Source of the DNA: a virus
Reading direction: 5' to 3' (one strand)
IMG/VR virus record: IMGVR_UViG_3300032257_000011
DNA length: 64,000 bases
Shown here: positions 12,683-32,480 of the stretch, piece by piece
Numbering within the stretch: position 1 is the stretch's first letter
Layout: each line of letters opens with the position of its first letter
The notes under the pieces: model-generated
Seen by the model: the letters and a program-made list of their open reading frames with translations, nothing else
Database searches by the model: none
Told to the model about the DNA's origin: nothing
Program-made: the position numbers and the translations under genes

Positions 12683-12693
12683 GGAAAAGAAAT

Positions 12694-12915: not shown

Positions 12916-12939
12916 ATATCTCTATCACCTGTAATCAAT

Positions 12940-13533: not shown

Positions 13534-13542
13534 GAAATCATC

Positions 13543-13752
13543 ATGGCTAAGCAAAAAATAAAGAAAATGAAATGCTTTCAAATGGGGAATGCAATTCTTG
13601 TTGTTTCCCGATTTACTGGATGGATGATTGTCATTACAGCCTCATTTGCTCTTGGAGCGTTTGCTGCATTAACCCTAAAAGAACAATTTGCTGTAGCTAT
13701 TGAAAACAACGCAGTACCAATAGAAACAATAGAAACAATAGAAGGACCATAG
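13543..13752 (+). CDS. small membrane protein
   Basis: ORF track. Confidence 0.4.
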   Translation: MAKQKIKKMKCFQMGNAILVVSRFTGWMIVITASFALGAFAALTLKEQFAVAIENNAVPIETIETIEGP

Positions 13753-13755
13753 GTT

Positions 13756-14001
13756 ATGGCTAAGCTACGAATACCAAAGAAAAAAGAAGAGACCTTTCGA
13801 TATAAATTCTATGGATTTCTAGATTCCCTTAGCGAATTCATCGGACCTATTATATTCATGACTGCATGTTTCGCAGCACTAATTATTCTTCTATGGGCTT
13901 TGAATGAAGGAGCGAAACATAGCGAACAACATAATCAGGATGTTGCTAATAAAATCATAGAATGCGACATTACATGCCATAAACACGGAAAAGAGAAGTG
14001 A
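13756..14001 (+). CDS. small membrane protein
   Basis: ORF track. Confidence 0.4.
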   Translation: MAKLRIPKKKEETFRYKFYGFLDSLSEFIGPIIFMTACFAALIILLWALNEGAKHSEQHNQDVANKIIECDITCHKHGKEK

Positions 14002-14070
14002 ACGACCGAACATTTTTTCAAATCACCGAATTTAATGGTTTATTAAAAAAAGTACCTGAAAGCGTATAAT

Positions 14071-14529
14071 ATGATAGCATCAATAGCCCTGTCCATACTC
14101 GTCACCATCAACACCCTAATAACGATGCTTATTATATTTCTTGCCTATAAGACCTATAAGTACAGAGTACAAGCAGAAGCCTATCTCAAAGACATTACTG
14201 ACAATTCAGAGCATGTTCAAGAGATGACAGGCGTAGTCTATGAGATGACCTATCATGGCGAACAAAGAGGCGTAGACTCATATGAGCCAACAGATACAAC
14301 TGACTATACTCCTGAAACGGATATGCCAAGTTATATCAATTGGCCTACTACAATGGATTCTAATCAGGGAAGCTTCGCTTTCAACTCCGAAACGAATACA
14401 TGGGATAACATGGAAGATGTTGATGGCATCACTCCAGATATACTCAAAGACCTTGGAGAACTCTTCGATATGGATAACCTATATGAAGGGCCAAAACACT
14501 TAAAAGATCCGGAGAAAGAAGATGAATAA
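14071..14529 (+). CDS. membrane-anchored acidic protein
   Basis: ORF track. Confidence 0.5.
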   Translation: MIASIALSILVTINTLITMLIIFLAYKTYKYRVQAEAYLKDITDNSEHVQEMTGVVYEMTYHGEQRGVDSYEPTDTTDYTPETDMPSYINWPTTMDSNQGSFAFNSETNTWDNMEDVDGITPDILKDLGELFDMDNLYEGPKHLKDPEKEDE

Positions 14530-15112
14530 AATAGCAACCCTAAGCCTCGCAACCATCGTAATAGGCTCTTCTGTTGCCTGCTCTAACACAAGAGAGCTTG
14601 AGCCAATAAGTAATGCGTCCAATACTGCACTACAGCCTATCTCTAAAGAGCCAGGCACTCAGATTGACTTCAACTTTGATAGACCTATTCCAGTCGTAAC
14701 AAGACCATCTCCAAGATACATACTGGTCAAAAACGCTGACTATGCCCTAATAAGTCCCTGGTCTCCATCAGTGAGAGGTATACCCCTTATTGATGCTCAT
14801 GTCGCCTGGACAGACGAAATCGTATTCTGGGTAAACCCTGAGCTAGATTATCAGATAACAGCAAGGCATATTGGCAGGATAACAATACCAGACCCATCAC
14901 AACCTAACATAAGATATCAAGCGGAAACAGTTTCTTTTGAATACGATGTTCCTCTTTCTTATGAAAATATGCTCGATTGGAACCTATATAACAAAATTGT
15001 ATGGGCAAACAGATATAATCAATTTGAAGACACATATGGTATCTCGTCGCAACAGTTTATGGAAGCTGTACGGAGAGTTGAGCAAATGTTTATCAATGAC
15101 GGAAACCCATAA
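14522..15112 (+). CDS. putative lipoprotein
   Basis: signal peptide with lipobox-like VAC. Confidence 0.5.
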   Translation: MNKIATLSLATIVIGSSVACSNTRELEPISNASNTALQPISKEPGTQIDFNFDRPIPVVTRPSPRYILVKNADYALISPWSPSVRGIPLIDAHVAWTDEIVFWVNPELDYQITARHIGRITIPDPSQPNIRYQAETVSFEYDVPLSYENMLDWNLYNKIVWANRYNQFEDTYGISSQQFMEAVRRVEQMFINDGNP

Positions 15113-15113
15113 T

Positions 15114-15836
15114 ATGTCTAAGAACAAGAAGAAGAAATTCAAGAAGAACAAGCGGAAGAGATCGCATCCTTCTAACTTTGTTCAAAATGCTGATGGAGAC
15201 AAGTTCTGGCGCAATGGCAGGGGAGAACTTCACAAACAAGGTGGACCTGCTAAAATATTAGCCAATGGGACTGAAGAATGGTATAAAAATGGGGTAATTC
15301 ATCGAATAGATGGTCCAGCAAAAATAACCCCTTATGGATCTCAGTATTATTATCAAGATGGAGAATTGCATCGAACAGACGGACCAGCTATTATATATGC
15401 TAAACTCAATGATCTAAAAGAAGAATGGTATCGTCATGGGACTCGTCATCGACTAGATGGACCAGCGAAAATTTGGAAAAACGGAAGGCAACAATGGTAC
15501 TGTAATGGAGACATTCATAGAACCGATGGACCTGCTATTATTCATCAAAATGGTACGCTTACCTATATGCAACATAATGTAACGCACAGAATAGGTGGTC
15601 CTGCTGTTATATTCCCTAATGGAAGAGAAGAATGGTATTCTCATGGACAACTCAATCGAATGGATGGGCCAGCCATAACCGACCCTAAAGGCCCTAATAT
15701 TTGGTACTTTCGTGGAAGCAAAGTATCCACAATAGACGCTAAATGGTGGCTTATGCTCGACCTAACCTGGTTGGGGCAATCAAGAGACATTCACCAGCAT
15801 AGTAAACAGAAATGCTCTATAATGAGAGTCTCATGA
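15114..15836 (+). CDS. MORN-like repeat protein (about 8 x 23-aa W-x3-G-x2-HR-x-DGPA repeats)
   Basis: periodic repeats read directly; start moved to ATG after upstream stop. Confidence 0.65.
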   Translation: MSKNKKKKFKKNKRKRSHPSNFVQNADGDKFWRNGRGELHKQGGPAKILANGTEEWYKNGVIHRIDGPAKITPYGSQYYYQDGELHRTDGPAIIYAKLNDLKEEWYRHGTRHRLDGPAKIWKNGRQQWYCNGDIHRTDGPAIIHQNGTLTYMQHNVTHRIGGPAVIFPNGREEWYSHGQLNRMDGPAITDPKGPNIWYFRGSKVSTIDAKWWLMLDLTWLGQSRDIHQHSKQKCSIMRVS

Positions 15837-15935
15837 AAAAGAACAAACCAAATAGCCCAAATTGGCTCGTAGCAACATTCGCTATCATCGGAGAACTCAT
15901 TGAGTCTCTCCTTTTCAATATGTTCGACGACTGAT

Positions 15936-15948
15936 TTTCGCGGAAAGA
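15936..15948. promoter_or_regulatory. TTTTCGCGGAAAG palindrome
   Basis: member of TTCCGCGGAA palindrome family. Confidence 0.4.
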
Positions 15949-15954
15949 AATAAT

Positions 15955-16128
15955 ATGTTCACAAAAGAAGTAGCTGCAATCCTATTAGCCGTCATAGACC
16001 TAGAACTAGATAAAGAAAAGTTCCTCACAGAACCTGAAAAACAAGTCAAACAAGCATGGTATAACCTATGGGTATCAGCAGGTAAACCAATCAGAGAAGA
16101 ATTAGAACTCATGAAAGAAGAACTCTAA
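15955..16128 (+). CDS. small protein (57 aa, below ORF-track cutoff)
   Basis: ATG after palindrome; stop overlaps next start (TAATG). Confidence 0.4.
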   Translation: MFTKEVAAILLAVIDLELDKEKFLTEPEKQVKQAWYNLWVSAGKPIREELELMKEEL

Positions 16129-16634
16129 TGAATAAGTACCCATATGACCACCCAATGCAAGATACATGCCTTGATGAACAAGGAACGCTTAGATATAAAG
16201 AAAATGCCATTGTTTCGCATATACTCAATCACGCACGCAATAACGGATGCGACCTCAATGACCTTGCAAGGATGGACTTCTCAGCGAATGACTGGAGACA
16301 GTTTCAACAGCTTCATGGATACTCAATTAGTGGATTCGCAGAACTTTCATGGGTAGGCAACCCATTCGGTGAAGAAGAATACGAAGATGGTTACTACGAA
16401 TATATGGAACGACAAATACCTGAATATTTCGGAGAAGATGAAGAACTAGAACAGGAAGCTAAAGAATCTGGAATGGCTATCGTCGGGCACCTACTCGAAA
16501 TGCTAAAAGAGAAGCAGAAAGAGTCAAGCGAGGAATTGAAGAAGATCAATGAACTCACGTCTCAGGTAGCAGCAGAAGTAGAAAGGCTCAGAACAGAGAA
16601 TGCCTCTCTCAAGGAACAGTTGGCAGCGAAATAA
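16128..16634 (+). CDS. hypothetical protein with C-terminal coiled coil
   Basis: ORF track. Confidence 0.55.
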   Translation: MNKYPYDHPMQDTCLDEQGTLRYKENAIVSHILNHARNNGCDLNDLARMDFSANDWRQFQQLHGYSISGFAELSWVGNPFGEEEYEDGYYEYMERQIPEYFGEDEELEQEAKESGMAIVGHLLEMLKEKQKESSEELKKINELTSQVAAEVERLRTENASLKEQLAAK

Positions 16635-16666
16635 TGGGCCTAATGAGGATATAAGGAAACAATAAT

Positions 16667-16879
16667 ATGCAAGTATCAATCATACTCCTAGGCTTCGCCT
16701 TCATGTTCATGCTCTGGTATGGGATTATCTGCCATAAAGAATATAAAGACAAAATTGAGCATATCTACAAAAGAATCAACTACCTGTCAGGAGTAGTACA
16801 AGAACAAATACATGAGAAGAACCATCTCGATACCAGAATCAAGGCTCTTGAAAAGAAGAATCATGAAACAGAAGAATAA
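16667..16879 (+). CDS. small membrane protein
   Basis: ORF track. Confidence 0.4.
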   Translation: MQVSIILLGFAFMFMLWYGIICHKEYKDKIEHIYKRINYLSGVVQEQIHEKNHLDTRIKALEKKNHETEE

Positions 16880-17195
16880 TACATTACACCCATTTTGGAC
16901 ATATCTCATTATGTCATCGCCATTCATGGTTGCAATATCTATATGGCTCATATTGAAGATAGAACATATATTCATCTATCTAGGATATGGAGCTATATGG
17001 ATTCTTCTCTCTATATTGGCATATCTCATCATTACCATACTACTCACTGTATTTATGATGGTAGCGTCAGCAGCCCTAAAATCATTAGCCAAAAAACAAA
17101 AAGTACGTCCACCAGATTGGACACGATTCTTCGAATCAGATATAGAAGCTGAAGAGATGTTCAATCCATTATACTGGTATAGAGCCTTCTTTTAA
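16863..17195 (+). CDS. polytopic small membrane protein
   Basis: in-frame ATG overlapping upstream stop. Confidence 0.45.
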   Translation: MKQKNNTLHPFWTYLIMSSPFMVAISIWLILKIEHIFIYLGYGAIWILLSILAYLIITILLTVFMMVASAALKSLAKKQKVRPPDWTRFFESDIEAEEMFNPLYWYRAFF

Positions 17196-17235
17196 TTTTC
17201 CGCGGATAATATATGAATCCCACAAGAAAGACCAA

Positions 17236-17559
17236 ATGAACAAAACAATAGAACAAGTACGCATAGGACAAACATTCATCTATCAAAAAATTGTCTATAT
17301 CAAGACCACAAACACACTAATGACCTGTAGAGGGGTAGCTCTTACGGATGATAAAGAAACCAGCACAGGATATGTATACGCATTGCCAGCAAATGCAGAA
17401 TGCCAAACAATCACAGGGTATAGCGATGTCAAAGACACTATAGATGAACTCTATATACAAAATGGAGGAAGCAATAAGGATACAGACCCGCTCATGAAAC
17501 TACTCATACTCCATCCAGAATTCCAACACCCAATGGAAAAAGAAGAACAAAAGGCCTAA
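17236..17559 (+). CDS. hypothetical protein
   Basis: ORF track; TTTTCCGCGGATAA palindrome 17197-17210 upstream. Confidence 0.45.
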   Translation: MNKTIEQVRIGQTFIYQKIVYIKTTNTLMTCRGVALTDDKETSTGYVYALPANAECQTITGYSDVKDTIDELYIQNGGSNKDTDPLMKLLILHPEFQHPMEKEEQKA

Positions 17560-17560
17560 T

Positions 17561-17818
17561 ATGATAAGACGCTTCTATCAAATACTATGGGCAACACTCT
17601 GTACAGCCATCGTGTACGGCTTCGCATATGAATACCTCGATATCGTATTCACGACATTCGAAATAACGCTCTCAATCGCAATTATTATACTGCTTCTACA
17701 TATAGATGACCTGAAAAGCACTATCAATATGCAAGAACAAATACTTGACAATCAAAGAAAACAAACCGCACAAGATGATAAAAACTATATAAGAGTCAAA
17801 AGAAAGAACGAACAATGA
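17561..17818 (+). CDS. small membrane protein
   Basis: ORF track. Confidence 0.4.
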   Translation: MIRRFYQILWATLCTAIVYGFAYEYLDIVFTTFEITLSIAIIILLLHIDDLKSTINMQEQILDNQRKQTAQDDKNYIRVKRKNEQ

Positions 17819-18021
17819 AGAAACATATCATAGACTTCTTCACAGCGCTCGCATTCGGACTCCTTACGCTACTCTTCGTCAATACAGTATTTGGATACAA
17901 AGAAACAATCATGGAAGCTATACTTCTCTTCCTCGCTCTATCAATCATGCTCAGAATACTCAGACTAGAAGATAGAATAGAAAAGATTGAAAAAGAACCA
18001 ATAATACAGAAAGAAGGATAG
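17815..18021 (+). CDS. small membrane protein
   Basis: ORF track; ATGA overlap. Confidence 0.4.
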   Translation: MKKHIIDFFTALAFGLLTLLFVNTVFGYKETIMEAILLFLALSIMLRILRLEDRIEKIEKEPIIQKEG

Positions 18022-18022
18022 A

Positions 18023-18235
18023 ATGAACATACCAGTAGGAAAATACGCAATAGCCCTCATAATAGCAATCATCATATCATCAATACTAAGAACAGGATTC
18101 AATGTTGAACCTTATCTAGCAAACGTTATATTAGAATGCTTTATTGTCTATACAATCATCAGAACACTAGGCTATATCAATGAACTGTCAATAGAAATAA
18201 ATAAAAAGAACAATAATTCCGCGGAAAGAAACTAA
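18023..18235 (+). CDS. small membrane protein
   Basis: ORF track. Confidence 0.4.
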   Translation: MNIPVGKYAIALIIAIIISSILRTGFNVEPYLANVILECFIVYTIIRTLGYINELSIEINKKNNNSAERN

Positions 18236-18257
18236 TACACACTAAAAGAAAGAAAAC

Positions 18258-18404
18258 ATGCCTAATCAACCAGAAAACACGATTTCACCAGTAGAGAAAG
18301 ATATCCAGGATATAATCAAAGACATGCAAACACCAGAGGACGTAATAAAAGAATCACTCACAATCAAACAAATCACACACAATGAAAGATTCAATAAAGA
18401 ATAA
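18258..18404 (+). CDS. small acidic protein (48 aa, below track cutoff)
   Basis: ATG 28 nt after AATTCCGCGGAAAG palindrome (18216-18229). Confidence 0.35.
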   Translation: MPNQPENTISPVEKDIQDIIKDMQTPEDVIKESLTIKQITHNERFNKE

Positions 18405-18416
18405 GGATACACACAC

Positions 18417-18638
18417 ATGGGAATGTATGATGAAGTTATTGTCAATTGTCCAGTATGCAGAGAAGAAGTAGCAGTTCAATCAAAAGCAGGACCATGCGAA
18501 CTCATTACCTATAGAGGCAACAATGTACCAGCAAGCATAGCTGAAGATATCAATGGGGAATACCAAGATTGTACAGAATGTAAACAATCATTCCAAGTAG
18601 AAGCTCAAATCATTGTTATACTCACAACCCATACATAA
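18417..18638 (+). CDS. zinc-ribbon small protein
   Basis: CPVC…CTEC. Confidence 0.45.
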   Translation: MGMYDEVIVNCPVCREEVAVQSKAGPCELITYRGNNVPASIAEDINGEYQDCTECKQSFQVEAQIIVILTTHT

Positions 18639-18652
18639 CAGGAAAATATATC

Positions 18653-18835
18653 ATGACTCCAATACAAATCATCATATATATCATCACGCTACTCATAGCA
18701 CTACTTATAGGATATCTCATAGGAGAAGCTACAGCTACAAAAATACTCAATGAAGAAACAGAAAACAATAGAAAAGAATATGTAGAATTTGATTTAGATG
18801 AACCAGAACCAGAAGAGCAGGAAATAATATCATGA
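18653..18835 (+). CDS. small membrane protein
   Basis: ORF track. Confidence 0.35.
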   Translation: MTPIQIIIYIITLLIALLIGYLIGEATATKILNEETENNRKEYVEFDLDEPEPEEQEIIS

Positions 18836-19086
18836 TAACACCTATTATTGCCATAGTAGTAGCCTTCACAATACTGGTATCCATGCTTGTTCTATTAGCA
18901 AATAAAGCAATCAAAGATGATAGAGAAAGAGTAGAATTTGAAATACTCATGGATGAGACATGTCCTCATTGTGGACAAACCCTAACACTGAACCACTCTA
19001 CGAGCGTGGATAAGCAAGTAGCAGATGGACAGCTTACTCTTTCATCGCAAGTAGCGAATGGACAGCTCAATATTGAACCCAAATGA
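18832..19086 (+). CDS. small membrane protein with CPHCG motif
   Basis: ORF track. Confidence 0.4.
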   Translation: MITPIIAIVVAFTILVSMLVLLANKAIKDDRERVEFEILMDETCPHCGQTLTLNHSTSVDKQVADGQLTLSSQVANGQLNIEPK

Positions 19087-19127
19087 ATAAATTCCTTGTT
19101 TTTGACCTAATATGGATATTTCACCCA

Positions 19128-19148
19128 TTATGACCCACTATGACCCAC
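19128..19148 (+). repeat. direct repeat TATGACCCAC x2 in 170-bp AT-rich intergenic region
   Basis: read directly. Confidence 0.5.
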
Positions 19149-19255
19149 AGGAAACTTTAGATACGCTCTGGAAGCCCAGGATAGCGCGTCTTTATGTTAT
19201 AACATCATAATATTCGTCAGGGAAACTTAAATAATATATTTATGAGGTAATAAAA

Positions 19256-19549
19256 ATGCCACAATATAGGATGGCCAATCAGAAACAAGAAGAACTGTTA
19301 TACTCCTTTGGTCTGCCCTCCGTTATTACAACAAATGGGAATGCGAGGGGATACTTTCATAACGAAGGGAGCTTCTGCACCCAATACGGGAACGGTACTT
19401 TCATCTGGTGTCATATGGGATACATTCACAGAAACAATGGACCCGCAATTGAACGAAGTGGTGAAAAGGATCTATGGTATCTTTGGGGAGAGAAGACCTC
19501 AGTAGCTGATTACAGTTGGTCTATCTTCTTGGAACAAACACTATTATGA
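19256..19549 (+). CDS. MORN-like (…NGPAIER…WYLWGEK) repeat protein
   Basis: same repeat type as the 15114 gene. Confidence 0.5.
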   Translation: MPQYRMANQKQEELLYSFGLPSVITTNGNARGYFHNEGSFCTQYGNGTFIWCHMGYIHRNNGPAIERSGEKDLWYLWGEKTSVADYSWSIFLEQTLL

Positions 19550-20118
19550 TACTTCTCATATCCATCTCATGCTTGTCTCTCAGTTTCCTAACACTGATTG
19601 GTACAACTTACCTATCGCTCATCAAATTCCACAAGCTCCAAACCTTGAGGGTTCTGGATAGAAATGATAAATTTCATTTTATTGGGATGAGTATTCTGTT
19701 AAGTTTTTCTATGGGTGGATTCTTAGCTTTACTTCTTATTCACAACAAATCATTGAGGCTTACACTGAATGAGCGGCTTGATGAGGTTCGTAATCGTCCT
19801 ATGATTGTGAAACTTGCTAGGACTTCTTTTGATAGGGAAGAGAAGGTTCCTAGGGGTCAGGGGTATATACCTTGGGCGATGAAGCCTTATGGTGAATTGA
19901 CGATTGAGGACAGATATAGACATGTTGGTACGCCTAATGATTTTCCACCCTTGGGGAATTCTGACACTGAATCGGAGCCTGGCTTTGTAAACTTTCCTGT
20001 AGGATTTTTTAGTTCATCAGCTCCTTCTAAAGCTGTTACACTGAATGACATTAAGGATGTTGACGAAGTATCTACTAGGCTTACTGTTGTTGACAAGTTG
20101 TTTAGGAGATATAGATGA
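19516..20118 (+). CDS. membrane-anchored hypothetical protein
   Basis: ORF track; T-rich codon usage. Confidence 0.5.
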   Translation: MVYLLGTNTIMILLISISCLSLSFLTLIGTTYLSLIKFHKLQTLRVLDRNDKFHFIGMSILLSFSMGGFLALLLIHNKSLRLTLNERLDEVRNRPMIVKLARTSFDREEKVPRGQGYIPWAMKPYGELTIEDRYRHVGTPNDFPPLGNSDTESEPGFVNFPVGFFSSSAPSKAVTLNDIKDVDEVSTRLTVVDKLFRRYR

Positions 20119-20816
20119 AATTACGTGGAATCCATATTAGGGGCAAAAACGCATCCAGTGACATTTCTTTGGACTTCATGGATGACGAGGGGAAATTGGT
20201 GGAACAATGTCTTCTGAGGGGTAATTTGCTATCAGGAAAGACATTGTTATGTCATCTTATATCTTCAGCTTGGTCATCGAGTATATTGAGTAGTCCTAAT
20301 CTGGAGTTGGATGTTGATGCTGAGATGGTTCGTATTGATTTTAGTGTTGGTCATGAGATAAGTAGTGTTCATATCCGTAATGGTCATATAGAGCCTTCTT
20401 CATTGTTAGCGAAGCATAGTGATGTGAGTATAGGTGATAGTCCTTCTGTTCATGGTGGAGTGTTATATTATTCTTCATTGCGCGAAAATTATATGGAGTA
20501 TGCGAATGCTGCTTATATGGGTTCTGGTGGCGTGAATCGTTGTTTGCCTGTGATATATGACTTACAGATGAAAGAAATCAAAGATTCTGTGATTATTATA
20601 GATGATTGGGACTTGGGTTTAGATGCTGTTACTGCGAAGTCCTTTTATACATTTGTGAGTAGTCATGCTCATTCTGGGGGTAATCAGTTGATATTGACAA
20701 GTTCTTCAGCTAAACCGGGGTATATAGCTGATAGGAGTTGTTTTGAGTTATCTGGGGGTTCTGATATTATTACAGAGTGTCTGAAAGTAATGGGTAGCGT
20801 GGCTGTAGGCGAATAA
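20115..20816 (+). CDS. P-loop NTPase (Walker A GNLLSGKT, Walker B VIIIDDWD)
   Basis: motifs read directly. Confidence 0.55.
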   Translation: MKLRGIHIRGKNASSDISLDFMDDEGKLVEQCLLRGNLLSGKTLLCHLISSAWSSSILSSPNLELDVDAEMVRIDFSVGHEISSVHIRNGHIEPSSLLAKHSDVSIGDSPSVHGGVLYYSSLRENYMEYANAAYMGSGGVNRCLPVIYDLQMKEIKDSVIIIDDWDLGLDAVTAKSFYTFVSSHAHSGGNQLILTSSSAKPGYIADRSCFELSGGSDIITECLKVMGSVAVGE

Positions 20817-20883
20817 TTTCTATTTATATAAATTATTGTTGAAAGGGCAATAATCCTTTGAAAAAATCTGGAAATGATTAAAA

Positions 20884-21267
20884 ATGAGTCCGATACTACA
20901 AGAGCATATTGAAGATGGTGAATATTACGTCGATGGCATTCGTCGTTGGTTTGTTGACAATGAGCTTCATAGGGAAGACGGCCCTGCTGTTGTGATGGAC
21001 AATGGTTCTGAGTTTTGGTTCAAGGATGGCAAGCGTCATCGCATTGGAGGTCCTGCTGCAATTGTTCCTTCTGGGATCAATGGGGACAATGAGAGCGGAG
21101 AGGGTTGGTATCTTGATGGCGTGAGTCATAGACTTGATGGTCCTTCTACGACATATGATGATGGGTCTACCCTTTGGTGCGTATATGGTCAGATTGTTGA
21201 TTCTGAGCGTGAGCAGTCTTGGTTGACGTTTCTCTTTGCTGGAGTGCATGATGAGCAACGTAGCTAG
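20884..21267 (+). CDS. MORN-like DGPA-repeat protein
   Basis: HREDGPAVV, HRIGGPAAIV, HRLDGPSTT repeats. Confidence 0.55.
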   Translation: MSPILQEHIEDGEYYVDGIRRWFVDNELHREDGPAVVMDNGSEFWFKDGKRHRIGGPAAIVPSGINGDNESGEGWYLDGVSHRLDGPSTTYDDGSTLWCVYGQIVDSEREQSWLTFLFAGVHDEQRS

Positions 21268-21445
21268 AGATGCAATGACGAGATATTATAAGAAGGCTGG
21301 CTATATTCGCAAGGATGTTGGTAATTCTATTCGAGTGTTTGATGCGATAGATAATAAGCGAAGCGCCATTCTGCATCATGGCAATCATGTTTTGAGGAAC
21401 GTGGACAGGGATTGGTTGATGTTCTTTTATCCGGAAATAATATAA
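21236..21445 (+). CDS. hypothetical small protein
   Basis: ORF track only. Confidence 0.3.
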   Translation: MLECMMSNVARDAMTRYYKKAGYIRKDVGNSIRVFDAIDNKRSAILHHGNHVLRNVDRDWLMFFYPEII

Positions 21446-21464
21446 TGTATGAGATTTCAACTAT

Positions 21465-21728
21465 ATGGAAAACGACATGAAGATTAGATACACTCATTAT
21501 TCTGATACCATTGAGGTATGGGTTGACATGGAAGGCGAGGCTGTCAATTCTTCTGTTCTCAATTATAATGTAACGACATTGAAGCCTGAAGAGAGTTCTG
21601 ACTATTCTTGGTTTTATTTTCTTTTTCCGGAGAAATTAGAATTTGATACAGACGTGTCTCCTCAGCAGCAAGCTGACTACATGAGAGAAATGTTAACACA
21701 TTCTCATACAACGGATGACTTCTCATGA
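21465..21728 (+). CDS. paralog A (D-x-SWFYFLFPEKLEF motif)
   Basis: shares motif with next ORF. Confidence 0.45.
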   Translation: MENDMKIRYTHYSDTIEVWVDMEGEAVNSSVLNYNVTTLKPEESSDYSWFYFLFPEKLEFDTDVSPQQQADYMREMLTHSHTTDDFS

Positions 21729-21955
21729 TGGATTATGAGTACGCAGATGGAACAGTTGAGAAATGGACCGATAACGGTGCCTGGTTATATAAGACAGAAG
21801 ACATGTCTGTTATAGATAGCGATTGGTTTTATTTTCTTTTTCCTGAGAAGCTGAAGTTCAACTACTGGGAAGAGAAGGTAGATTCGCTTGGAGAGACTAT
21901 GTTTAGTTCAGAGCTACAGAAAGATCTCAAGGCCTGGCATGGTATCGAAATTTAA
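21725..21955 (+). CDS. paralog B (DSDWFYFLFPEKLKF motif)
   Basis: ATGA overlap. Confidence 0.45.
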   Translation: MMDYEYADGTVEKWTDNGAWLYKTEDMSVIDSDWFYFLFPEKLKFNYWEEKVDSLGETMFSSELQKDLKAWHGIEI

Positions 21956-21961
21956 AAGGGC

Positions 21962-22110
21962 TTACACTGATTGACATCAATCGTATGTGAATAAGTAACA
22001 TACTGATGACCAGAAAGATCCTTACACTGTTTCGCTAACACTGATTGGGTTACACTGTTTCGCTTACACTGAATGGCATGTGAATAGCTAACACTGAATG
22101 GCTAACACTG
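21962..22110. repeat. array of 7 TTACACTG/TAACACTG repeats with inverted TCACATG elements
   Basis: copies at 21962, 22022, 22036, 22050, 22064, 22089, 22103; CATGTGAAT at 22078 and CGCATGTGATT at 22114. Confidence 0.7.
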
Positions 22111-22122
22111 AACCGCATGTGA

Positions 22123-22836
22123 TTACCTACCTTCGTAAGTTTTCATGACATCCCGAAGCTTTTCTGCGTAATCTTCTCTGGTTTGCTCTGGAACGATCTT
22201 CCAAGGAAGTCCCCAATGAAGGCGTATGAGGTTCTCAAGGAGACGAGCTGCTGAGTTATTGCCATCTTCAAACGGCTTGATGGCAGCGAATCTGAGCGAC
22301 ATCTCTTCAGCCTTCTCAACGAAGAGTTCCGCCGTCTCATTATCAATAACAACTCCTCTGATGATATGGAGATGCTTCTGTTCGAACTCGTGGATGTCAT
22401 TGGTCCACTCAAGGAGTAGGTCCCTTATATGGAATTGGCTTGGAGCTTCAATGGTCCCGAATGGGGATTCCGTTCTTTGGACACTTTGACGGAACTGACC
22501 AAGCTGTGAATGATTGATGAGATTTCCATCAAGTACAAGCGCTCCAAATTCAGCGACTGGCTTCATCATATTCCGGTGAAGTCTTTTGACCCAGGGGATT
22601 TTGGTATCCAGTTCGAAGACGTTATTGACTTTGGGGAAGATATCATCTTCTGCGATTGATGAGATGAGCATAATTGATTTATATTGACCTGCAACATATG
22701 GGTCATGATTTTCAACTTCTGGCGAGTGTATTGTTCTTTCAATGGTTGTTCTATCCATTGGAACCCGGTCGAGTCGAATTGTGTGATAAATGAAAGCTAT
22801 TAACTGGTCGTCTGTTGGTTCTGGAAAGTTTGGCAT
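22123..22836 (-). CDS. Fic-fold protein with non-canonical motif (KPFEDGNNSAARLLENLIRLHWGLP)
   Basis: matches HPFxDGNGRxxRLLxNLhLxxxGxP with H->K and GR->NS; only long minus-strand ORF; ATG at 22836, alternative TTG at 22878. Confidence 0.6.
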   Translation of the reverse strand: MPNFPEPTDDQLIAFIYHTIRLDRVPMDRTTIERTIHSPEVENHDPYVAGQYKSIMLISSIAEDDIFPKVNNVFELDTKIPWVKRLHRNMMKPVAEFGALVLDGNLINHSQLGQFRQSVQRTESPFGTIEAPSQFHIRDLLLEWTNDIHEFEQKHLHIIRGVVIDNETAELFVEKAEEMSLRFAAIKPFEDGNNSAARLLENLIRLHWGLPWKIVPEQTREDYAEKLRDVMKTYEGR

Positions 22837-22852
22837 AGTTTGTTTATCGTCA

Positions 22853-22864
22853 TTTCCGCGGAAA
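22853..22864. promoter_or_regulatory. TTTCCGCGGAAA palindrome 17-28 nt upstream of Fic ATG
   Basis: read directly. Confidence 0.5.
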
Positions 22865-22866
22865 AA

Positions 22867-22949
22867 AGATCGGTGCAAGGGTTGACAACATCAGGTGAAG
22901 ATGGTAAGATCGGTGCATGGAGAGAAAATCCCACAACAAGATCGGTGCA
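22867..22949. repeat. three direct copies of AGATCGGTGCA (22867, 22907, 22939) in divergent intergenic region
   Basis: read directly; same 11-mer recurs 11 or more times elsewhere. Confidence 0.7.
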
Positions 22950-23086
22950 TTGATTCACTGTTTGACATCAAAACCGTGTCAAAAGCTGAAAATGGTGTGA
23001 AAGGGGATGTAGCTGGTGAAGCTATGATAATGGATAATAGAGAGTCGTGAAAGTTTTTGTTCAAGTATATATAGAAGGAATTTGTT

Positions 23087-23842
23087 ATGTCAATCAAACG
23101 AGGTCGTGTCACTGAATCAGATGTCTACTACAACCATGCGAAGGACGCAGCTCTCTCAGGAGTTGAGCGACCGGATTCGATTACAAGGAGAGACGGCAAT
23201 AAACAGAAGGCCCGTCGCCATCATATCCTTGAGAAAGACTTAATCCTGAAGACTGAGGAGATGAAGCTCAAGGAGAGATGGATTGGACCCTGTAATAAGT
23301 GGAAGACATATTGGGCCATCATCGAGTCTCTCTACCAATTAGGGCCAAACCAGCAGCATCTATTTGGAGCCGTCTTTATCAAGATTGAGGAGCTGATGGA
23401 TGACGAAGCTTCCAGAGATAGTTCTGATAGAACTGCTTGGCAGCGATTTGCAGACAAAGATTCACGCAACAATACCTCAGGAAAAGATGCTCTTGGTCGT
23501 ATTTGGGACTCGATCAAAGTCCTTCAGCGTCTAGGCGGAGCGAATCCTTACGGGCTGAAGCTGGCTCAACTGGGAGCATGCATCAACATCTATGGTAAGA
23601 AGGACAAGCCTTATATTGAATTGAGAATTGGCATACCTGCTGGTTCGGACATTACTCCTATCAATGAGATTCGTTCTAGGGACTATCCCCGTTCTATTAC
23701 CTCGGTTCCTTCAGGTTATAAAGCTGAGGGTGGACTGCATGTGATAGACCTGACTGAAATTGGAGATCCATGCTCACCATCTATACAACCATTGACCATT
23801 GCTCAGGCTGCTGAGAAGCTTGAACAGAGTCCGAACTCTTGA
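23087..23842 (+). CDS. hypothetical protein
   Basis: ORF track; GAAGGAA SD; TTGACA-N17-TAAGAT promoter-like at 22883-22911. Confidence 0.55.
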   Translation: MSIKRGRVTESDVYYNHAKDAALSGVERPDSITRRDGNKQKARRHHILEKDLILKTEEMKLKERWIGPCNKWKTYWAIIESLYQLGPNQQHLFGAVFIKIEELMDDEASRDSSDRTAWQRFADKDSRNNTSGKDALGRIWDSIKVLQRLGGANPYGLKLAQLGACINIYGKKDKPYIELRIGIPAGSDITPINEIRSRDYPRSITSVPSGYKAEGGLHVIDLTEIGDPCSPSIQPLTIAQAAEKLEQSPNS

Positions 23843-23921
23843 CAGTTCTTATTCACATGCGGTAAGATATCTCTATCGAAAGTTGAGACGATTTCAACTT
23901 CCACTTATAGAGGTATAACCG

Positions 23922-25355
23922 ATGACTAGCAAAGCAAACAAGACAGGCACTCCAAAGTCCAAGGGTCGGGGGCGAAAGTCTGACCCAATCAAGTTTATTG
24001 CTCCAATCAAGCCAAACGACCACATCATCCGTGATGCTATCGACTTGGGCTTGTCTGAAAGCAACGACTCAAATGCAATCCTTTCCATCCTTCAACGCCA
24101 CCCACAGAATGTAGATACCATTCTCGATGAGGATGAGCGTTTGGAAGCGATTGCTCAACTTATGTCTGAGAATAAGATGGTTGCGGCTCCAACGGATGCC
24201 GACCGAGTTAATCGAATTCTTGACTTCGTGGTTCAATCATCCTCGGAGAAGGGCGAACAAACTTGGCTTGCTCTTTTGAGTCCAGACCGTTCTACTCTTG
24301 TATCTTTTCCAGACTACCAGGAATTGCTTCGCAAGCGTTTGATGGAGCAAATTCGTGGCGTTCGTCGTAAGGTTCGTACTGATAGTCGTAAGGCTGCTAA
24401 GGCTTTTGCTGACTACTCGGATACCAATGGGGATGGGCCTTTGGCTATCTCTTGGCATGAAGCGGCGAATGATATTGAGATTCTTGAGCGTATCCCAACT
24501 GGTCATCAAATCTTGGATGAATTCTTTGGGTACGATGAGATTGAAACTCCTAACGGAGAGAAGATTAGAATCGGCGGTATGATTAACGGTCATACTTACA
24601 TCGTCGGCGCGCCTCATGGCATGGGTAAGACTCGTTGGCTTGTTGACCTGCTTGCTCGTTTGTGCGGCAAGGCTTCAATGGATGAGCATGGTAGAACTGT
24701 CGGCGGTATGACTGGTCTCTACATTCAAGGGGAAGAAACCCCAAGCCGATTTGCTTCAATGTTCGTCGATGGTCTTTGGATAAAGGGCGAGCATGATATC
24801 CATCTTTCGGATAAGGCTGTCTTTATGACTCAGCACGAATCGCTTATCAAGCAACTTCGACCTGATATTGTGGTCATCGACTCCAAGGATATCATGGAAG
24901 ATTGGAAGCATCCATCGGCTGCCAAGCGTAACGCTAAACTGTACAATCGTTGGGCGGCTGAATACGGATTTGTTCTCTTTGTTATCTCTCATGTCAATGC
25001 TGAGGGAAAGATTAAGGGCGGTTCCGATTTGCCTCACATGTTCCGAGCCGAAATCCTTGGCGCTCGTAATGAGCATGATGCCTCTATGTTCTATCTTCGG
25101 ATGGGCAAGAATCGTGGTTCCCAAGGCGGCGGCGTAGTCCACTACAAGCATGGTTCAAAGACTGTCCATATTGTTGATGAAGCGACTGGCGATACCATAA
25201 TCAAGACCGAGATGTGTCCTGATGCTGCCTTGCTAACTGGCATGGTTGATTCGGCTGTAAATCATAATCAGACTACAACGGCTTTGCTCTCTCAAATCAA
25301 TACGGCAACGGAGAGAACAAGCGGAACTAGGGTCGTAGAGAACACGGCGAACTAG
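23922..25355 (+). CDS. DnaB/RepA-like RecA-fold helicase
   Basis: Walker A GAPHGMGKT, Walker B VVIDSKD, RecA-like core. Confidence 0.65.
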   Translation: MTSKANKTGTPKSKGRGRKSDPIKFIAPIKPNDHIIRDAIDLGLSESNDSNAILSILQRHPQNVDTILDEDERLEAIAQLMSENKMVAAPTDADRVNRILDFVVQSSSEKGEQTWLALLSPDRSTLVSFPDYQELLRKRLMEQIRGVRRKVRTDSRKAAKAFADYSDTNGDGPLAISWHEAANDIEILERIPTGHQILDEFFGYDEIETPNGEKIRIGGMINGHTYIVGAPHGMGKTRWLVDLLARLCGKASMDEHGRTVGGMTGLYIQGEETPSRFASMFVDGLWIKGEHDIHLSDKAVFMTQHESLIKQLRPDIVVIDSKDIMEDWKHPSAAKRNAKLYNRWAAEYGFVLFVISHVNAEGKIKGGSDLPHMFRAEILGARNEHDASMFYLRMGKNRGSQGGGVVHYKHGSKTVHIVDEATGDTIIKTEMCPDAALLTGMVDSAVNHNQTTTALLSQINTATERTSGTRVVENTAN

Positions 25356-25555
25356 ACAGGCACCTCTAGGGGGATAGCAATCGTCTCTGCTCATCCTCTT
25401 TGTATCCATCGCTTTCATCGGAGCGGTGGATATTTTTAGTATTCCGCGGTTATTCACATGCGATTGGTATGGGTTCGTGGTATACTGTAAGAGTCAGACC
25501 GAGCGTTTCGGAATGGCAAATCAAAGTGAACCCACTCTTAAGGAAGGACAGCACG

Positions 25556-26890
25556 ATGACAGTAGTTACTCAGACAAACGGACGAATTCAGACAGACAAT
25601 GAGGGAGGTATCGAGAGATTCGTTACCCAAGAGCGTAAAGGGTTGGATGCGAAAGACGGGATTACTTCTCGTATGTTCAGTCCAACGGATTGCATTGCTC
25701 ATTTGCAGGCAGCGGGCAGCGGTCGGTTTGACCTGCTTGTTGATGGTTCAAACTCTCTCAATATTATCTCAGACTCAAAGAGCGAATCGGGTCTTTCGAT
25801 TGCTCCACAGGTGGGAGATATCTCTGGTCAATCAGAAAATGGGGCTGCATTTGCGAATGCAATCAACACCAATGGTTCCGCTCATATCTCCAAGGCTGCA
25901 TTGAACCAACTTTGTTCATTGCTTGGAGTCAATGGAGGGTGGAAGCGTTACGAGAAGATGAATACTCCAGTTGCCAACTTCATGCGAGACATGAATCAAA
26001 TGTTTGGTACAAGCAATGGGGAATCATCCTTTGTTGCTCGGACAAACAGCCGTGGTAAGGATTATGTTGTTGAATCATTCTTGGCTCCAAATGTAGACCG
26101 TACCGATTCTACTGTTATCGTAGGGGCTGCTATGCAAGCCGTTATTGAACAGTGGGGCGACAGTCTGCGAGGGGTAGAGGTTATCAACCACAATGCAGGT
26201 GGCGGTTCCAAATTCCGTTTGCTCTTTGGCGATGCGGTTCTCGATGAGAAGGAAACCGATGGATACAAGAAATTGTTTCCTATGCTTGACCTGACGCTCT
26301 CAGATAGTCGTAGGTTCCATCCATCTGCTGCCTTGGGCCTCTGGCGCATGTGGTGTTTGAATGGTTGTAGCACGAAAGATTGGGACCTGGCAAGCTGGAA
26401 GGGTAACGCTACATCAAGCGGAGCCGATATGATTTCTGGCATCCAAGGGCTTGTCAATGTTGCTTTCCCAGTTGCGGGCGCAATCGCTGGCGGCTTGACG
26501 AACTTGCAGCATCAAGAACTCGGCATGAAGCCACAAGATATCGTTAGCATGATTGCTGGTCGAAATCTGATTGGTAACAGTTTCCGAGACGACCTGATTC
26601 ATTGCATCGAGAATGGCGGCGGCGATGGTAAGGGCGTAAATACCGAGTGGGATATGTTCAATACCTTTACTCATGGGGCTAAAATGGCTGGCTCGCTTGC
26701 AAGCCGTGGAAGCAATGAGAACAAGGGCTTGCTGTATGCTCTCGCTGACGGTGGCTTTACGGGCGTTGCTCAGAGCGGTTTCAACCGAGACCAATTCAAG
26801 TCGAAAATGGCTGACATGTACGAGAGCAATGTTGGAGACCCTAAGACTACTGGTCTTGGCGCTAAGAAGGCTTTGGCATCGGTCGCATAA
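25556..26890 (+). CDS. Gly-rich hypothetical protein
   Basis: AAGGAAGG SD then ATG; terminator follows. Confidence 0.55.
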   Translation: MTVVTQTNGRIQTDNEGGIERFVTQERKGLDAKDGITSRMFSPTDCIAHLQAAGSGRFDLLVDGSNSLNIISDSKSESGLSIAPQVGDISGQSENGAAFANAINTNGSAHISKAALNQLCSLLGVNGGWKRYEKMNTPVANFMRDMNQMFGTSNGESSFVARTNSRGKDYVVESFLAPNVDRTDSTVIVGAAMQAVIEQWGDSLRGVEVINHNAGGGSKFRLLFGDAVLDEKETDGYKKLFPMLDLTLSDSRRFHPSAALGLWRMWCLNGCSTKDWDLASWKGNATSSGADMISGIQGLVNVAFPVAGAIAGGLTNLQHQELGMKPQDIVSMIAGRNLIGNSFRDDLIHCIENGGGDGKGVNTEWDMFNTFTHGAKMAGSLASRGSNENKGLLYALADGGFTGVAQSGFNRDQFKSKMADMYESNVGDPKTTGLGAKKALASVA

Positions 26891-26918
26891 GACAGGCACC
26901 TAACTAACTTCCCCAACA

Positions 26919-29581: not shown

Positions 29582-29753
29582 ATGACCATGAACACTCAGT
29601 TCCAAACAGATAGACTATTACTTGCGTAAAGGGAAGGCCCCTACTAACGCTTGCTATGTCTCTGTAGTCAAGACCTCATAACAACTCAATGAATATACTT
29701 GCCGTACCGCTGCTCTAAAGAGAAACGTACATCATGGGCAAGTTTTTCTTATT

Positions 29754-29837
29754 GGCCCTATGGTGAAATTGGTAGACACGCTAGGTTCAAATTCTAGTGG
29801 CTGAAAGGTCGTCCCGGTTCGATTCCGGGTAGGGTTA
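29754..29837 (+). tRNA. tRNA-Leu (anticodon CAA), type II
   Basis: hand-folded cloverleaf; long variable arm; GGTTCGATTCC T-loop; no CCA encoded. Confidence 0.7.
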
Positions 29838-30140
29838 TTCACTTGTAAGAGATTCTATCATGTGATAGTATGACGATACAAATAGAGCTGATGCTCAGAA
29901 GGAATGAAATGAATAGTAAGATGACGAATGTAGCTCGGAAACACAGGATGAGCCGCAAGAAGATGCAGGCGCAGGTTCGAGCAGAGAAAGCAAAATCAAA
30001 GAAGTAGATGAAAAAACCGAGTAAGGAAGAATTGAAAGCAGCTATACAGAGACACGTTGAGAAGTCAGCGGAGGCTGTGGCAAAGATCCCTCTTGAGAAG
30101 AGGACGATTTTGAGTAAGTTCGACTTGGAGAAAAATTGAT

Positions 30141-30326
30141 ATGGTTATAAAAATAGGTAACAAATTTGTGTCTTGGGAGAAATCAGGAAGAGGTATTTAT
30201 ACCGTTTATACTTATTCTTTGCAGAAAGAAAGACCTGAAGAAAGCACAGCGACAGAGATAGCAAGAAGAAGTAGACAAATGAGTTTTATTGGATTTGCAA
30301 GATTCAAAGAAATGGAATTTTGTTAA
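30141..30326 (+). CDS. hypothetical small protein
   Basis: ORF track only. Confidence 0.3.
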   Translation: MVIKIGNKFVSWEKSGRGIYTVYTYSLQKERPEESTATEIARRSRQMSFIGFARFKEMEFC

Positions 30327-30332
30327 ACACAC

Positions 30333-30414
30333 GGCCCCGTGGCGGAATTGGTAGACGCGCAAGATTTAGGTTCTTGTTCCTTACGGAGTGCAGGTTCGAT
30401 GCCTGTCGGGGTTA
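30333..30414 (+). tRNA. tRNA-Leu (anticodon TAG), type II
   Basis: hand-folded; long variable arm. Confidence 0.7.
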
Positions 30415-30418
30415 TTTA

Positions 30419-30502
30419 GCTTATGTGGCGGAATTGGTAGACGCGTATCCTTGAGGTGGATATTCTAGAAATAGAGTGGAGGTTCGATTCCTCTCATGAG
30501 CA
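30419..30502 (+). tRNA. tRNA-Leu (anticodon GAG), type II
   Basis: hand-folded; long variable arm. Confidence 0.65.
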
Positions 30503-30511
30503 TTATAAATC

Positions 30512-30584
30512 CCTCTTGTAGCCCAATGGCAGAGGCGTTTGTCTTAGGAACAAAATGTTGGTGGTTCGACTCCACTCAAGAGGA
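30512..30584 (+). tRNA. tRNA, anticodon TAG, short variable arm (identity uncertain)
   Basis: 73 nt; C1-G72; 3-bp D stem; anticodon loop CTTAGGA; T-loop GGTTCGACTCC. Confidence 0.5.
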
Positions 30585-30588
30585 TTTA

Positions 30589-30664
30589 GGCCCTGTAGCC
30601 CAACTTGGTAGGAGGCGACAGACTTAAAATTTGTACAGTGTGGGTTCGAATCCCTCCAGGGTCA
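30589..30664 (+). tRNA. tRNA, anticodon TAA, short variable arm, enlarged D-arm (identity uncertain)
   Basis: 76 nt; anticodon loop CTTAAAA; T-loop GGGTTCGAATCCC; one T-stem mismatch. Confidence 0.45.
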
Positions 30665-30677
30665 TTAGGAGAACAAG

Positions 30678-31058
30678 ATGAAAAGCATTACCTTTGATGA
30701 AATTGAAGTAATCATAAATGAGCATGCTGAAGAGTTTGCTGAAGAGTCTGTGCTTGGTATAGGTATTTGTCAGCGTGAGAATCTTCTTAGATTTGTGGTT
30801 ACAGTTGAAGACCAAGAGACTTTTGATACTCTTTCCGAAAAATACAAAGACAGAGAAATCAATGGATTTCCTATCTATGTTGAAATCGGAACTATTCTAA
30901 CTATTGATAGAAGCGTTGACATGAGCATGGACATGGACCCGTGGCCTTTCTGGATGCTCCACAATAATGATGCTTGGTGGATGAAGGCACTATTATGTAT
31001 CCCTATCACATGCAGTTGGTTGCTTTGGTCTATAAGAGGCAAAGACGCTTGCCCATAG
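30678..31058 (+). CDS. hypothetical protein
   Basis: GGAGAA SD immediately after tRNAs. Confidence 0.45.
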   Translation: MKSITFDEIEVIINEHAEEFAEESVLGIGICQRENLLRFVVTVEDQETFDTLSEKYKDREINGFPIYVEIGTILTIDRSVDMSMDMDPWPFWMLHNNDAWWMKALLCIPITCSWLLWSIRGKDACP

Positions 31059-31266
31059 GAGAAATAGATGCCGACAGCAGAAACGCTTGAAGAAGCAAAA
31101 ACGTGGTTCCTTGAGAACTCTAGCGGAGTCTTGGTTTGTATGTCAGGAGAGCAGCAGATGATTGTTTCTAGCTATACTGAAGCTGAAGACTTTTTTAGGA
31201 TGGCTGCCATTTGCGGCGAATAGGACTGCTAATCACCGCACAGTTTGCGGCGAATAAAGGAAGCTG

Positions 31267-31998: not shown

Positions 31999-32004
31999 AA
32001 AGAT

Positions 32005-32398: not shown

Positions 32399-32406
32399 AA
32401 ACATTT

Positions 32407-32480
32407 GCTCGACTAGCTCAACTGGATAGAGCGTCGGTCTTCTAAACCGAAGGTTCTGGGTTCGAGTCCCAGGTCGAGTG
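32407..32480 (+). tRNA. tRNA-Arg (anticodon TCT)
   Basis: hand-folded; anticodon loop CTTCTAA. Confidence 0.7.

Follow-up and report, generated by a model that had tools for sequence, protein, structure and literature searches.

Fic enzymes are defined by an invariant catalytic histidine. What, then, might a protein do that has the Fic fold and carries a lysine at the position of this histidine? The question is raised by a gene in a stretch of viral DNA of 64,000 nucleotides (nt) from the IMG/VR record IMGVR_UViG_3300032257_000011; this whole stretch is called the window below. An initial annotation, made from the letters of the window, described the gene as the only one of the reverse strand and its product as a Fic-fold protein with a non-canonical active-site motif. 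The analysis reported here confirms that the gene encodes a Fic-fold protein. To judge from the residues which it has lost, this protein is most likely not an adenosine monophosphate (AMP) transferase and would act by binding; we give this reading, taken as a whole, a probability of about one half. The gene and the segments on which the argument turns are the following:

22123..22836, minus strand: Fic-like coding sequence of 237 amino acids (aa), stop codon TAA at 22123-22125; supported by the open reading frame (ORF), Pfam, AlphaFold2, Foldseek and the ratio of non-synonymous to synonymous substitution rates (dN/dS)
22765..22782, minus strand: inhibitory-helix-like motif T19-I-R-L-D23-R24 (residues 19-24), putative counterpart of (S/T)xxxE(G/N), at the end of helix 9-22 in the model
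22447..22500, minus strand: flap region G113-x-F-R116 and beta-hairpin 121-130, from conserved residues and from model strands E121-124 and E127-130
22243..22278, minus strand: degenerate Fic signature KPFEDGNNSAAR (residues 187-198), aligned to the HPFxDGNGRxxR of 5jj6 and 3cuc

The Pfam profile PF02661 (Fic) matches residues 82-203 of the protein with 26.8 bits (E 9.8e-6; the gathering cut-off is 24 bits). The AlphaFold2 model, computed from a 65-sequence family alignment, has a mean predicted local distance difference test score (pLDDT) of 95.8 and a predicted template modelling score (pTM) of 0.92, and shows an all-helical core with a beta-hairpin at residues 121-130. When it is compared with the structures of the Protein Data Bank (PDB) by Foldseek, the top 50 matches are all Fic proteins (probability 1.00, template modelling (TM) score of about 0.6). 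FICD comes at the top with E 2.5e-7, and BT_2513 (TM 0.65), the Fic protein of C. difficile and Bep8 are also found. Similarly, the family profile finds FICD in the PDB with E 1.8e-14. The Fic fold which had been proposed at first thus holds: two of the checks suggested with it, a Pfam search and an AlphaFold prediction, gave Fic, and the outcome that was to count against it (no Fic match and no Fic model) was not observed.

As far as the model shows, the architecture appears to be class-II-like, with an inhibitory-type helix, a G-x-F-R flap with its hairpin, and an active-site loop. Among the 69 aligned family representatives over which all residue counts in this text were taken, the flap arginine R116 is invariant and G113 is found in 65. 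The N-terminal motif reads [ST]xxx[ED] in most members of the family, and some have the canonical SxxxEG. The family profile sets the N-terminal helix (t-n-k-l-E-R) against T-V-A-I-E-G of FICD, in a weak sub-alignment (domain i-Evalue 4.4). The SPEVEN stretch at residues 39-44 was also considered as an inhibitory motif and was rejected, as it is not conserved in the close relatives P0002 or P0003.

The minus-strand open frame runs from a TTG at 22878 to 22123. The in-frame ATG at 22836 is read as the real start, and the TTG is rejected, because homologues start at the aligned methionine, which is found in 62 of the representatives. The product then begins with MPNFPEP and ends with YEGR. No Shine-Dalgarno sequence was found before this ATG, and a search of positions 19000-26000 with Rfam at permissive thresholds detected no non-coding RNA at the locus. 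The guanine-cytosine (GC) content of the gene, 0.443, is in line with the right-hand domain of the window. The description of the gene as the only one of the reverse strand is borne out. Indeed, the other long minus-strand ORFs (52722-53285, 57409-57951, 26414-26899 and 34723-35202) are nested in plus-strand ORFs, and in the two cases examined (52722-53285 and 57409-57951) the overlapping plus-strand genes carry their own upstream signals. Besides the Fic locus, the window is without plus-strand ORF cover only at transfer RNA (tRNA) or non-coding regions.

Three residues of the active-site signature are replaced: Lys stands for the catalytic His, Asn for the second Gly and Ser for the first Arg. 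Searched against the PDB sequences with phmmer, KPFEDGNNSAAR matches, residue for residue, HPFTDGNGRTAR of the C. elegans protein Fic-1 (5jj6) and HPFEDGNGRIAR of BT_2513 (3cuc). The C-terminal region AAIKPFEDGNNSAARLLENLIRLHWGLPWK aligns without gaps to HPFTDGNGRTARLLLNLI (5jj6, E 2.3e-5) and to HPFEDGNGRIARLLVNFV (3cuc). The initial annotation had read these positions in the same way (Lys for the catalytic His, NS for the GR dipeptide). The HxFx(D/E)GNGRxxR motif with the invariant His, which characterizes canonical AMPylating Fic enzymes, is therefore absent. The loop retains D191 (the metal-binding Asp), G192, N193 and R198, and the flap is also kept. The form KPFED[G/Q]NNSxxR is found in all close relatives (84% and 64% identical; P0002 and P0003). 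The dN/dS ratio is 0.10 against the homologue of the related locus L003 and 0.08 against that of L001; the variant loop is therefore under strong purifying selection.

Among 5.8 billion proteins, only three close relatives were found, at 100%, 84% and 64% identity. An exhaustive HMMER search with a profile of the close relatives gave 102 proteins, of which about 70 are full-length (225-270 aa). The position of the catalytic His is occupied by Gln in 23 representatives, by Lys in 20, by His in 15 and by other residues in 11, and a neighbour-joining tree separates three clades, H, K and Q. The His clade has a near-canonical loop, HPFxDG[T/N]GRxxR; some of its members are without the inhibitory Glu, such as P0025, in which SxxxAQ is combined with HPFEDGNGR. 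The Lys clade, to which the window protein belongs, has KPFxDGSNRxxR, and the small subclade of the window protein has further lost the first Arg (NNS or NSA). The Gln clade has QPFxx[A/G]NNRxxR, where the metal-binding Asp is often lost too. The loop positions covary: at the second position of the anion hole, Gly accompanies His and Asn accompanies Lys and Gln, and the wider Lys and Gln clades share a loop form of their own, [KQ]PFxx[GA][SN]NRxxR. Other positions hardly vary: P188 and R205 are invariant, like R116 of the flap, the second Arg (R198) is kept in 66 representatives, E201 in 64 and N202 in 63. After the loop, the family has a specific signature, RLxENxLRLxWGLPWK.

The genomic position of the gene bears on its function. 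Related loci were searched for with a 9-sequence family alignment, and gene order was compared in 13 loci: the window, eight loci anchored on the Fic-like gene (L001, L003-L006, L008, L009 and L011) and four anchored on its neighbour (L012-L015). In all 13, the Fic-like gene is the sole gene on its strand, and it stands in the same order: an ATPase gene pointing right, the Fic-like gene pointing left, a gene called X, for a protein of about 250 aa, pointing right, and a helicase gene pointing right. A GHKL ATPase is found farther along in most loci. The neighbours in the window are:

20115..20816, plus strand: small ABC/SMC-head-like ATPase (AAA_21), conserved convergent neighbour; Pfam AAA_21, weak PtuA and AriA matches in PADLOC
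23087..23842, plus strand: divergent partner gene X, 251 aa, winged-helix-like domain
23922..25355, plus strand: RecA-fold helicase-like ATPase (AAA_25; RadA/DnaB-like); Pfam AAA_25 with 33.3 bits, PHROG DnaB-like helicase, weak match to TIGR00416 (sms)

The same slot is held by a His-type protein in L009, by Lys-type proteins in the window and in L001-L008, and by a Gln-type protein in L011. The function shared by the occupants of the slot therefore tolerates the loss of the general base. From this conserved order we read the Fic-like gene as a core gene of a replication-type cassette, and the pair formed by X and the helicase as a replication-initiation or early-control cassette, whose link to replication or early control we infer. 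Homologues of the small ATPase adjoin the Fic-like gene in L001, L004-L008 and L013-L015. In the window, four small genes stand between this ATPase and an array of CAGTG repeats, which is described below. Small proteins with MORN-like repeats (…W[FY]..G..HR..GPA…) are encoded at 19256-19549, 20884-21267 and 21465-21955. The adjacent genes 21465-21728 and 21725-21955, which have WFYFLFPEKL[E/K]F in common, are paralogous and are inserted between the ATPase and the CAGTG array.

The reading of the window protein as one that does not transfer AMP starts from the observation that the function of the slot survives the change of the general base to Lys or Gln, and that the subclade of the window has lost the first Arg in addition. 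Three residues that AMP transfer needs are lacking: besides the catalytic His and the first Arg, also the second Gly, which belongs to the anion hole. The protein would act by binding a protein or a phosphorylated ligand. This ligand may be held by the retained flap (G113 and R116) together with the residual phosphate loop (D191, G192, N193 and R198), and the family-specific residues E201, N202 and R205 could join in holding it. The likely partner would be a host factor or a component of the cassette itself. The role is probably in early host takeover or in replication control, given the fixed place of the gene, with an iteron-like array on one side and the genes of a winged-helix protein and a helicase on the other. 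In Bep8-type FIC domains, a side chain at the second Gly has been reported to make the binding of triphosphate nucleotides impossible; for BepC, whose motif is non-canonical, no enzymatic activity has been detected, and it acts through its binding to GEF-H1 (PMC8401265).

Several points weigh against this reading. D191, G192, N193 and R198 are still present in the loop, and the conserved form of the loop in the Lys and Gln clades looks like a re-tuned active site and not like decay. Lysine can serve as a general base in other enzymes. AvrB, a Fido protein which does not have the Fic motif, was later found to be an enzyme that uses a different nucleotide-sugar.

The main rival, which we consider rather unlikely, is that the protein is an active enzyme with altered chemistry. 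The loop with its Lys, Asn and Ser would then bind another donor or a target that is already modified. Lys187 or some other residue would serve as the base of the reaction, which could be de-AMPylation, a transfer of phosphoryl or phosphocholine, or the transfer of a nucleotide-sugar. The strong purifying selection on the variant loop itself fits this idea, as do the clade-correlated changes (His with GxGR, Lys and Gln with G/A-S/N-N-R) and the retention of the metal-binding Asp, of Asn193, of R198 and of the flap. However, the subclade of the window is also without the first Arg, which 53 of the 69 representatives keep, and in the Gln clade the metal-binding Asp is often lost too. De-AMPylation by FICD still requires the His of the motif, which counts against this rival too. 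In its favour, non-canonical Fic motifs support other modifications, Bep8-type loops have been proposed to accept an AMPylated target (PMC8401265), and a Doc clade with Gln for His is conserved in bacteria (PMC4454073). An inactive decoy or altered chemistry, the two outcomes that were expected at first, thus still make the right pair of options, given a Fic fold with substituted catalytic residues.

Could the protein nevertheless be a toxin whose expression is kept in check? The initial annotation saw a "potentially toxic host-modifying enzyme" under tight, possibly repressor-gated control, exerted at DNA elements next to the gene. The elements around the gene are:

22853..22864, no strand assigned: palindrome TTTCCGCGGAAA, one copy of a genome-wide, CCGCGG-centred palindrome family
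22867..22949, plus strand: motif A, AGATCGGTGCA, three copies, oriented as all other copies
22882..22910, plus strand: rightward sigma-70-like site TTGACA-17-TAAGAT, overlapping copy 2 of motif A; candidate promoter of gene 23087 (X)
23064..23093, minus strand: leftward sigma-70-like site TTGACA-18-TATACT, 11/12 consensus positions; candidate promoter of the Fic-like gene
21960..22123, minus strand: 3' flank array of seven CAGTG repeats ([T/A]CAGTGT[T/A]A[G/A][C/G], mostly 14 nt apart) with three sites resembling motif B, TTCACATGC(n)GTAAA

The positions first given are correct. The palindrome lies 17-28 nt from the ATG, a distance which already presupposes the start at 22836, and three exact copies of AGATCGGTGCA are found at 22867-22877, 22907-22917 and 22939-22949. 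The two elements are not particular to this gene. Motif A (AGATCGGTGC[A/T]) occurs 16 times in the window with at most 1 mismatch, always in plus orientation, and the 13 copies outside the Fic locus are intergenic, typically 25-90 nt before plus-strand genes. Since all copies have this orientation, the three at the Fic locus face X and not the Fic-like gene. Related GCACCnATCT copies are present upstream of the homologues in L001, L003, L004 and L005. The palindrome has further exact copies at 36616 and 62837, and about ten other sites, mainly intergenic, carry it with at most 2 mismatches; these near-copies often adjoin motif A or fall between motifs A and B. It is present in L003 and absent upstream of the 64%-identical homologue in L001. 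Thus, the motifs near the gene are genome-wide signals which share a divergent control region and form no dedicated gate on a toxic gene, and the proposed repressor-gated control finds no support.

It is very improbable, then, that the gene encodes an ordinary AMPylating enzyme, be it a toxin or one for host takeover, and that a repressor acting on the palindrome and the three repeats gates it. Such an enzyme would have the Fic fold and near-canonical relatives, which is what is observed, and the relatives of the His clade without the inhibitory Glu (P0025) would be predicted to be constitutively active; the palindrome does lie 17 nt from the ATG. But none of the three residues in question (catalytic His, second Gly, first Arg) is retained, and the repeats and the palindrome recur genome-wide, the former facing the other way and the latter missing in L001. 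In addition, no co-oriented antitoxin-like ORF was found upstream or downstream of the Fic-like gene, in the window or in the 12 related loci, and the gene is alone on its strand. Nor is there support for the claim of a potentially toxic host-modifying enzyme: the substitutions speak against a transfer of AMP, and the gene has no antitoxin-like partner and appears to be a core gene of a replication-type cassette. A toxin-antitoxin reading was likewise rejected, because of the missing partner ORF and the missing catalytic His.

Motif A could represent a second class of promoter, or else a signal for processing. Its other copies are at 27637, 47498, 48353, 50637, 52065, 54085, 57234, 58702, 59990, 61350, 62819, 63560 and 63899; many of the copies follow a CCCC-loop-GGGG hairpin at a distance of about 10 nt and precede a TTCACATGC site by 5-35 nt. 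The palindrome is a candidate operator of a global dimeric regulator. In the form TTT[C/T]CGCGGAAA it is found at 15935, 17197, 18216, 36616, 50618, 57250, 60008, 60337 and 62837, in intergenic positions of both compositional domains of the window. Its interpretation as an RNA hairpin was rejected, since it lacks a loop; it is more plausibly an operator in the DNA to which a dimeric protein binds.

The promoters of the divergent pair can be proposed from the sigma-70-like sites. The rightward site has apparent equivalents, read from the sequence, in L003 (TTGACA-17-TAAGAT), L001 (TTGACG-17-TATACT) and L004 (TTGCGA-17-TAAGAT). The leftward site at 23064-23093, which implies a leader of about 220 nt, is tentatively taken as the promoter of the Fic-like gene: the assignment is tentative because the site is weakly conserved in L003 and not conserved in L001.

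The Fic-like gene is on the boundary of two compositional and regulatory domains. The GC content is 36-40% with a positive AT skew on the left and 42-48% on the right, with a sharp boundary at about 19000-22000. Motif B has 43 exact plus-strand copies (0.2 are expected by chance), all between 23852 and 63930, where it precedes almost every plus-strand gene, often abutting the previous stop codon (TGA); no exact plus-strand copy is found left of the Fic-like gene, over 1-23 kb. It looks like a phage-specific promoter or intergenic cassette. A subset of its copies is followed, 22-29 nt downstream, by a CAyTGAAT-like element, and then in many genes by an AAGGAGA ribosome-binding site.

At the other end of the gene, the CAGTG array lies directly 3' of the Fic-like gene, in the same orientation, in 11 of the 13 loci. 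CAGTG occurs 3-7 times per 250-nt 3' flank, compared to 0.16-0.5 per 250 nt over the loci. The motif-B-like minus-strand sites of the window are interleaved in the array (22115-22123, 22076-22084 and 21983-21991) and start at the stop codon of the Fic-like gene. On the strand that is sense for this gene, CACTG is 3- to 10-fold rarer than CAGTG in most loci, so that CACTG is enriched on the main coding strand. This bias suggests that the pentamer belongs to a lineage-wide, strand-specific genome signal. The Fic-like gene also stands between the two copies of a 16-nt direct repeat, CACTG[A/T]TTGACATCAA, at 21965-21980 and 22956-22971, with a spacing of 991 nt. The idea that it marks a recent mobile cassette or a target-site duplication was rejected, as L003 does not conserve the left copy and the gene order is ancient.

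The position of the array raises the possibility that what is conserved is mainly antisense transcription into the CAGTG/TTCACATGC array, for origin activation or for insulation of the low-GC left domain from the right one, and that the protein is secondary. The orientation of the gene kept in 13 of 13 loci, the array immediately 3' of it in 11, the three promoter-like motif-B sites which begin at its stop codon on the minus strand, and its place where composition and motif B change all agree with this idea. We nevertheless hold it to be quite unlikely. The dN/dS of about 0.1 and the invariant residues over ~70 clusters show selection at the protein level; antisense transcription is compatible with a function of the protein and does not replace one.

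A further reading, which is unlikely too, if a little less so, is that the Fic-like protein is a non-catalytic, obligatory part of an unrecognised origin or early-control cassette. This cassette would be lineage-defining and would consist of the CAGTG iterons, the antisense Fic-like gene, a winged-helix initiator or regulator and a RecA-fold helicase; the Fic fold would have been re-purposed to binding, and the mechanism would include the conserved antisense transcription that enters the iterons. If this is true, the Fic fold could control or load the initiator or the helicase, or capture a host replication or topology factor.

How does the window protein, read as a binder that does not transfer AMP, compare with known Fido proteins? 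Its best matches in sequence and structure are FICD/HYPE and other class II Fic proteins (BT_2513, 3cuc; CdFic, 4x2e). It shares with them the G-x-[FY]-R flap with a beta-hairpin and a loop that is followed by RLxxN...G.P, and possibly an N-terminal helix of the (S/T)xxxE type. Unlike them, it has the His, the second Gly and the first Arg replaced, and in place of the inhibitory Glu an Asp, followed by Arg instead of Gly/Asn. It is also a single-domain protein of 237 aa, without a tetratricopeptide repeat or winged helix-turn-helix extension, and its family has the signature RLxENxLRLxWGLPWK with the invariant R205; the identity to class II proteins is only 15-20%.

The FIC domains of Bartonella of the BepC and Bep8 types resemble the window protein in that a canonical fold carries a degenerate loop (PMC8401265). 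Beps, however, are secreted bacterial effectors derived from class I FicTA, with OB and BID domains, whereas the window protein is phage-encoded, stand-alone and class-II-like, and has lost the His itself. The Doc clade D2 described by Khater and Mohanty in 2015 (PMC4454073) is a conserved clade of Fido proteins that has given up the essential His (Qx[FY]x[DE][GV]NKR), and it parallels the Gln clade of our family. It is bacterial and of the Doc type, with NKR and no beta-hairpin, whereas in the family of the window the flap forms a hairpin and N-R or N-S stands instead of K-R; clade D2 has Gln where the window protein has Lys. The features of Doc kinases (HxFx(D/N)(A/G)NKRxxR and no beta-hairpin) are not those of the window protein, which has no His and no NKR, and shows a hairpin in the model.

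Phage P1 Doc (Phd/Doc) and FicT/FicA are likewise Fido proteins found on a phage or mobile element, but they have an adjacent antitoxin gene and an intact His, while the window protein has neither a same-strand partner ORF nor the His. The adjacent small antitoxin gene that is typical of class I FicT/FicA and of Phd/Doc was absent from the window and from the 12 related loci. The anti-phage defence protein SoFic (PADLOC PDLC03963) gives a weak match to the Fic core (25 bits, E 2.7e-6), which covers positions 113-245 of a 361-position model. SoFic is a single-gene cellular defence, whereas the window gene belongs to a phage and did not turn up in the cellular genomes that were scanned; neither a full-length match nor a cellular defence-island context was found for it.

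Fic-fold proteins with degenerate motifs are thus already known. What appears to be undescribed is the combination: a phage-restricted, single-domain, class-II-like family with H, K and Q clades, whose gene has the status of a core gene and keeps the same antisense place within a conserved cassette, together with the uncultured phage lineage that carries it. Literature searches on Fic in jumbo phages and on Fic pseudoenzymes gave no description of this family.

The relatives were seen only on metagenomic or viral contigs from uncultured sources, between 12 and about 500 kb in length. Among these are viral contigs from IMG/VR (100-498 kb), metagenome assemblies from NCBI and sequences from Tara Oceans. 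No match was obtained when the region 21000-25000 (megablast) and the Fic-like protein (tblastn) were searched against 50,697 GenBank phage records, among which the helicase has distant RadA-like matches only. Similarly, a pattern scan of one genome per species for 185,579 GTDB bacterial and archaeal species, which rests on one conserved peptide pattern, found no relative. An integrated prophage is therefore unlikely, as far as this one pattern tells. The window looks like part of a large phage of the lytic type, with near-entirely co-directional genes, many AAGGAGA Shine-Dalgarno sites and hairpin terminators, and it has few matches to known phage families.

The window contains 13 tRNA genes in three clusters (29753-39338), including six tRNA-Leu and two tRNA-Met. 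Strong sigma-70-like sites, TTGACA-16-TATACT, are found at 29554, 37500 and 37635; the latter two are in a 1.2-kb region without plus-strand ORFs (36991-38212), which may hold an unannotated RNA. The cargo found at 1-19000 and at 34712-35833 is unusual for a phage: an SPFH/Band 7 protein (47-1819), a DUF1444 protein (7102-7935), TerD, TerB and vWA-TerF-like proteins, methyltransferases, a metallophosphoesterase and a membrane protein of the Na/Ca-exchanger family (34712-35833). The related large viral contigs L006 (9288-10069) and L008 (9565-10271) encode prepilin-type N-termini (MKKAFTLIE...), a hint that the host may be a bacterium that has type IV pilin or type II secretion machinery.

For the annotation of such genomes, the lesson is that short repeats which adjoin a gene need to be checked genome-wide before they are named operators: here the initial sequence observation is accurate and the regulatory story is not. 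For the phages, the Fic-like gene marks an uncultured lineage of large phages, with contigs of up to about 500 kb, some of them marine. The promoter-like grammar of this lineage is very regular and its replication-type cassette is conserved, which makes the gene a useful handle for its study. For the Fic family, one slot that is occupied by His, Lys and Gln clades is a natural experiment, either on what the Fic fold does after AMPylation is given up or on catalysis without the histidine.

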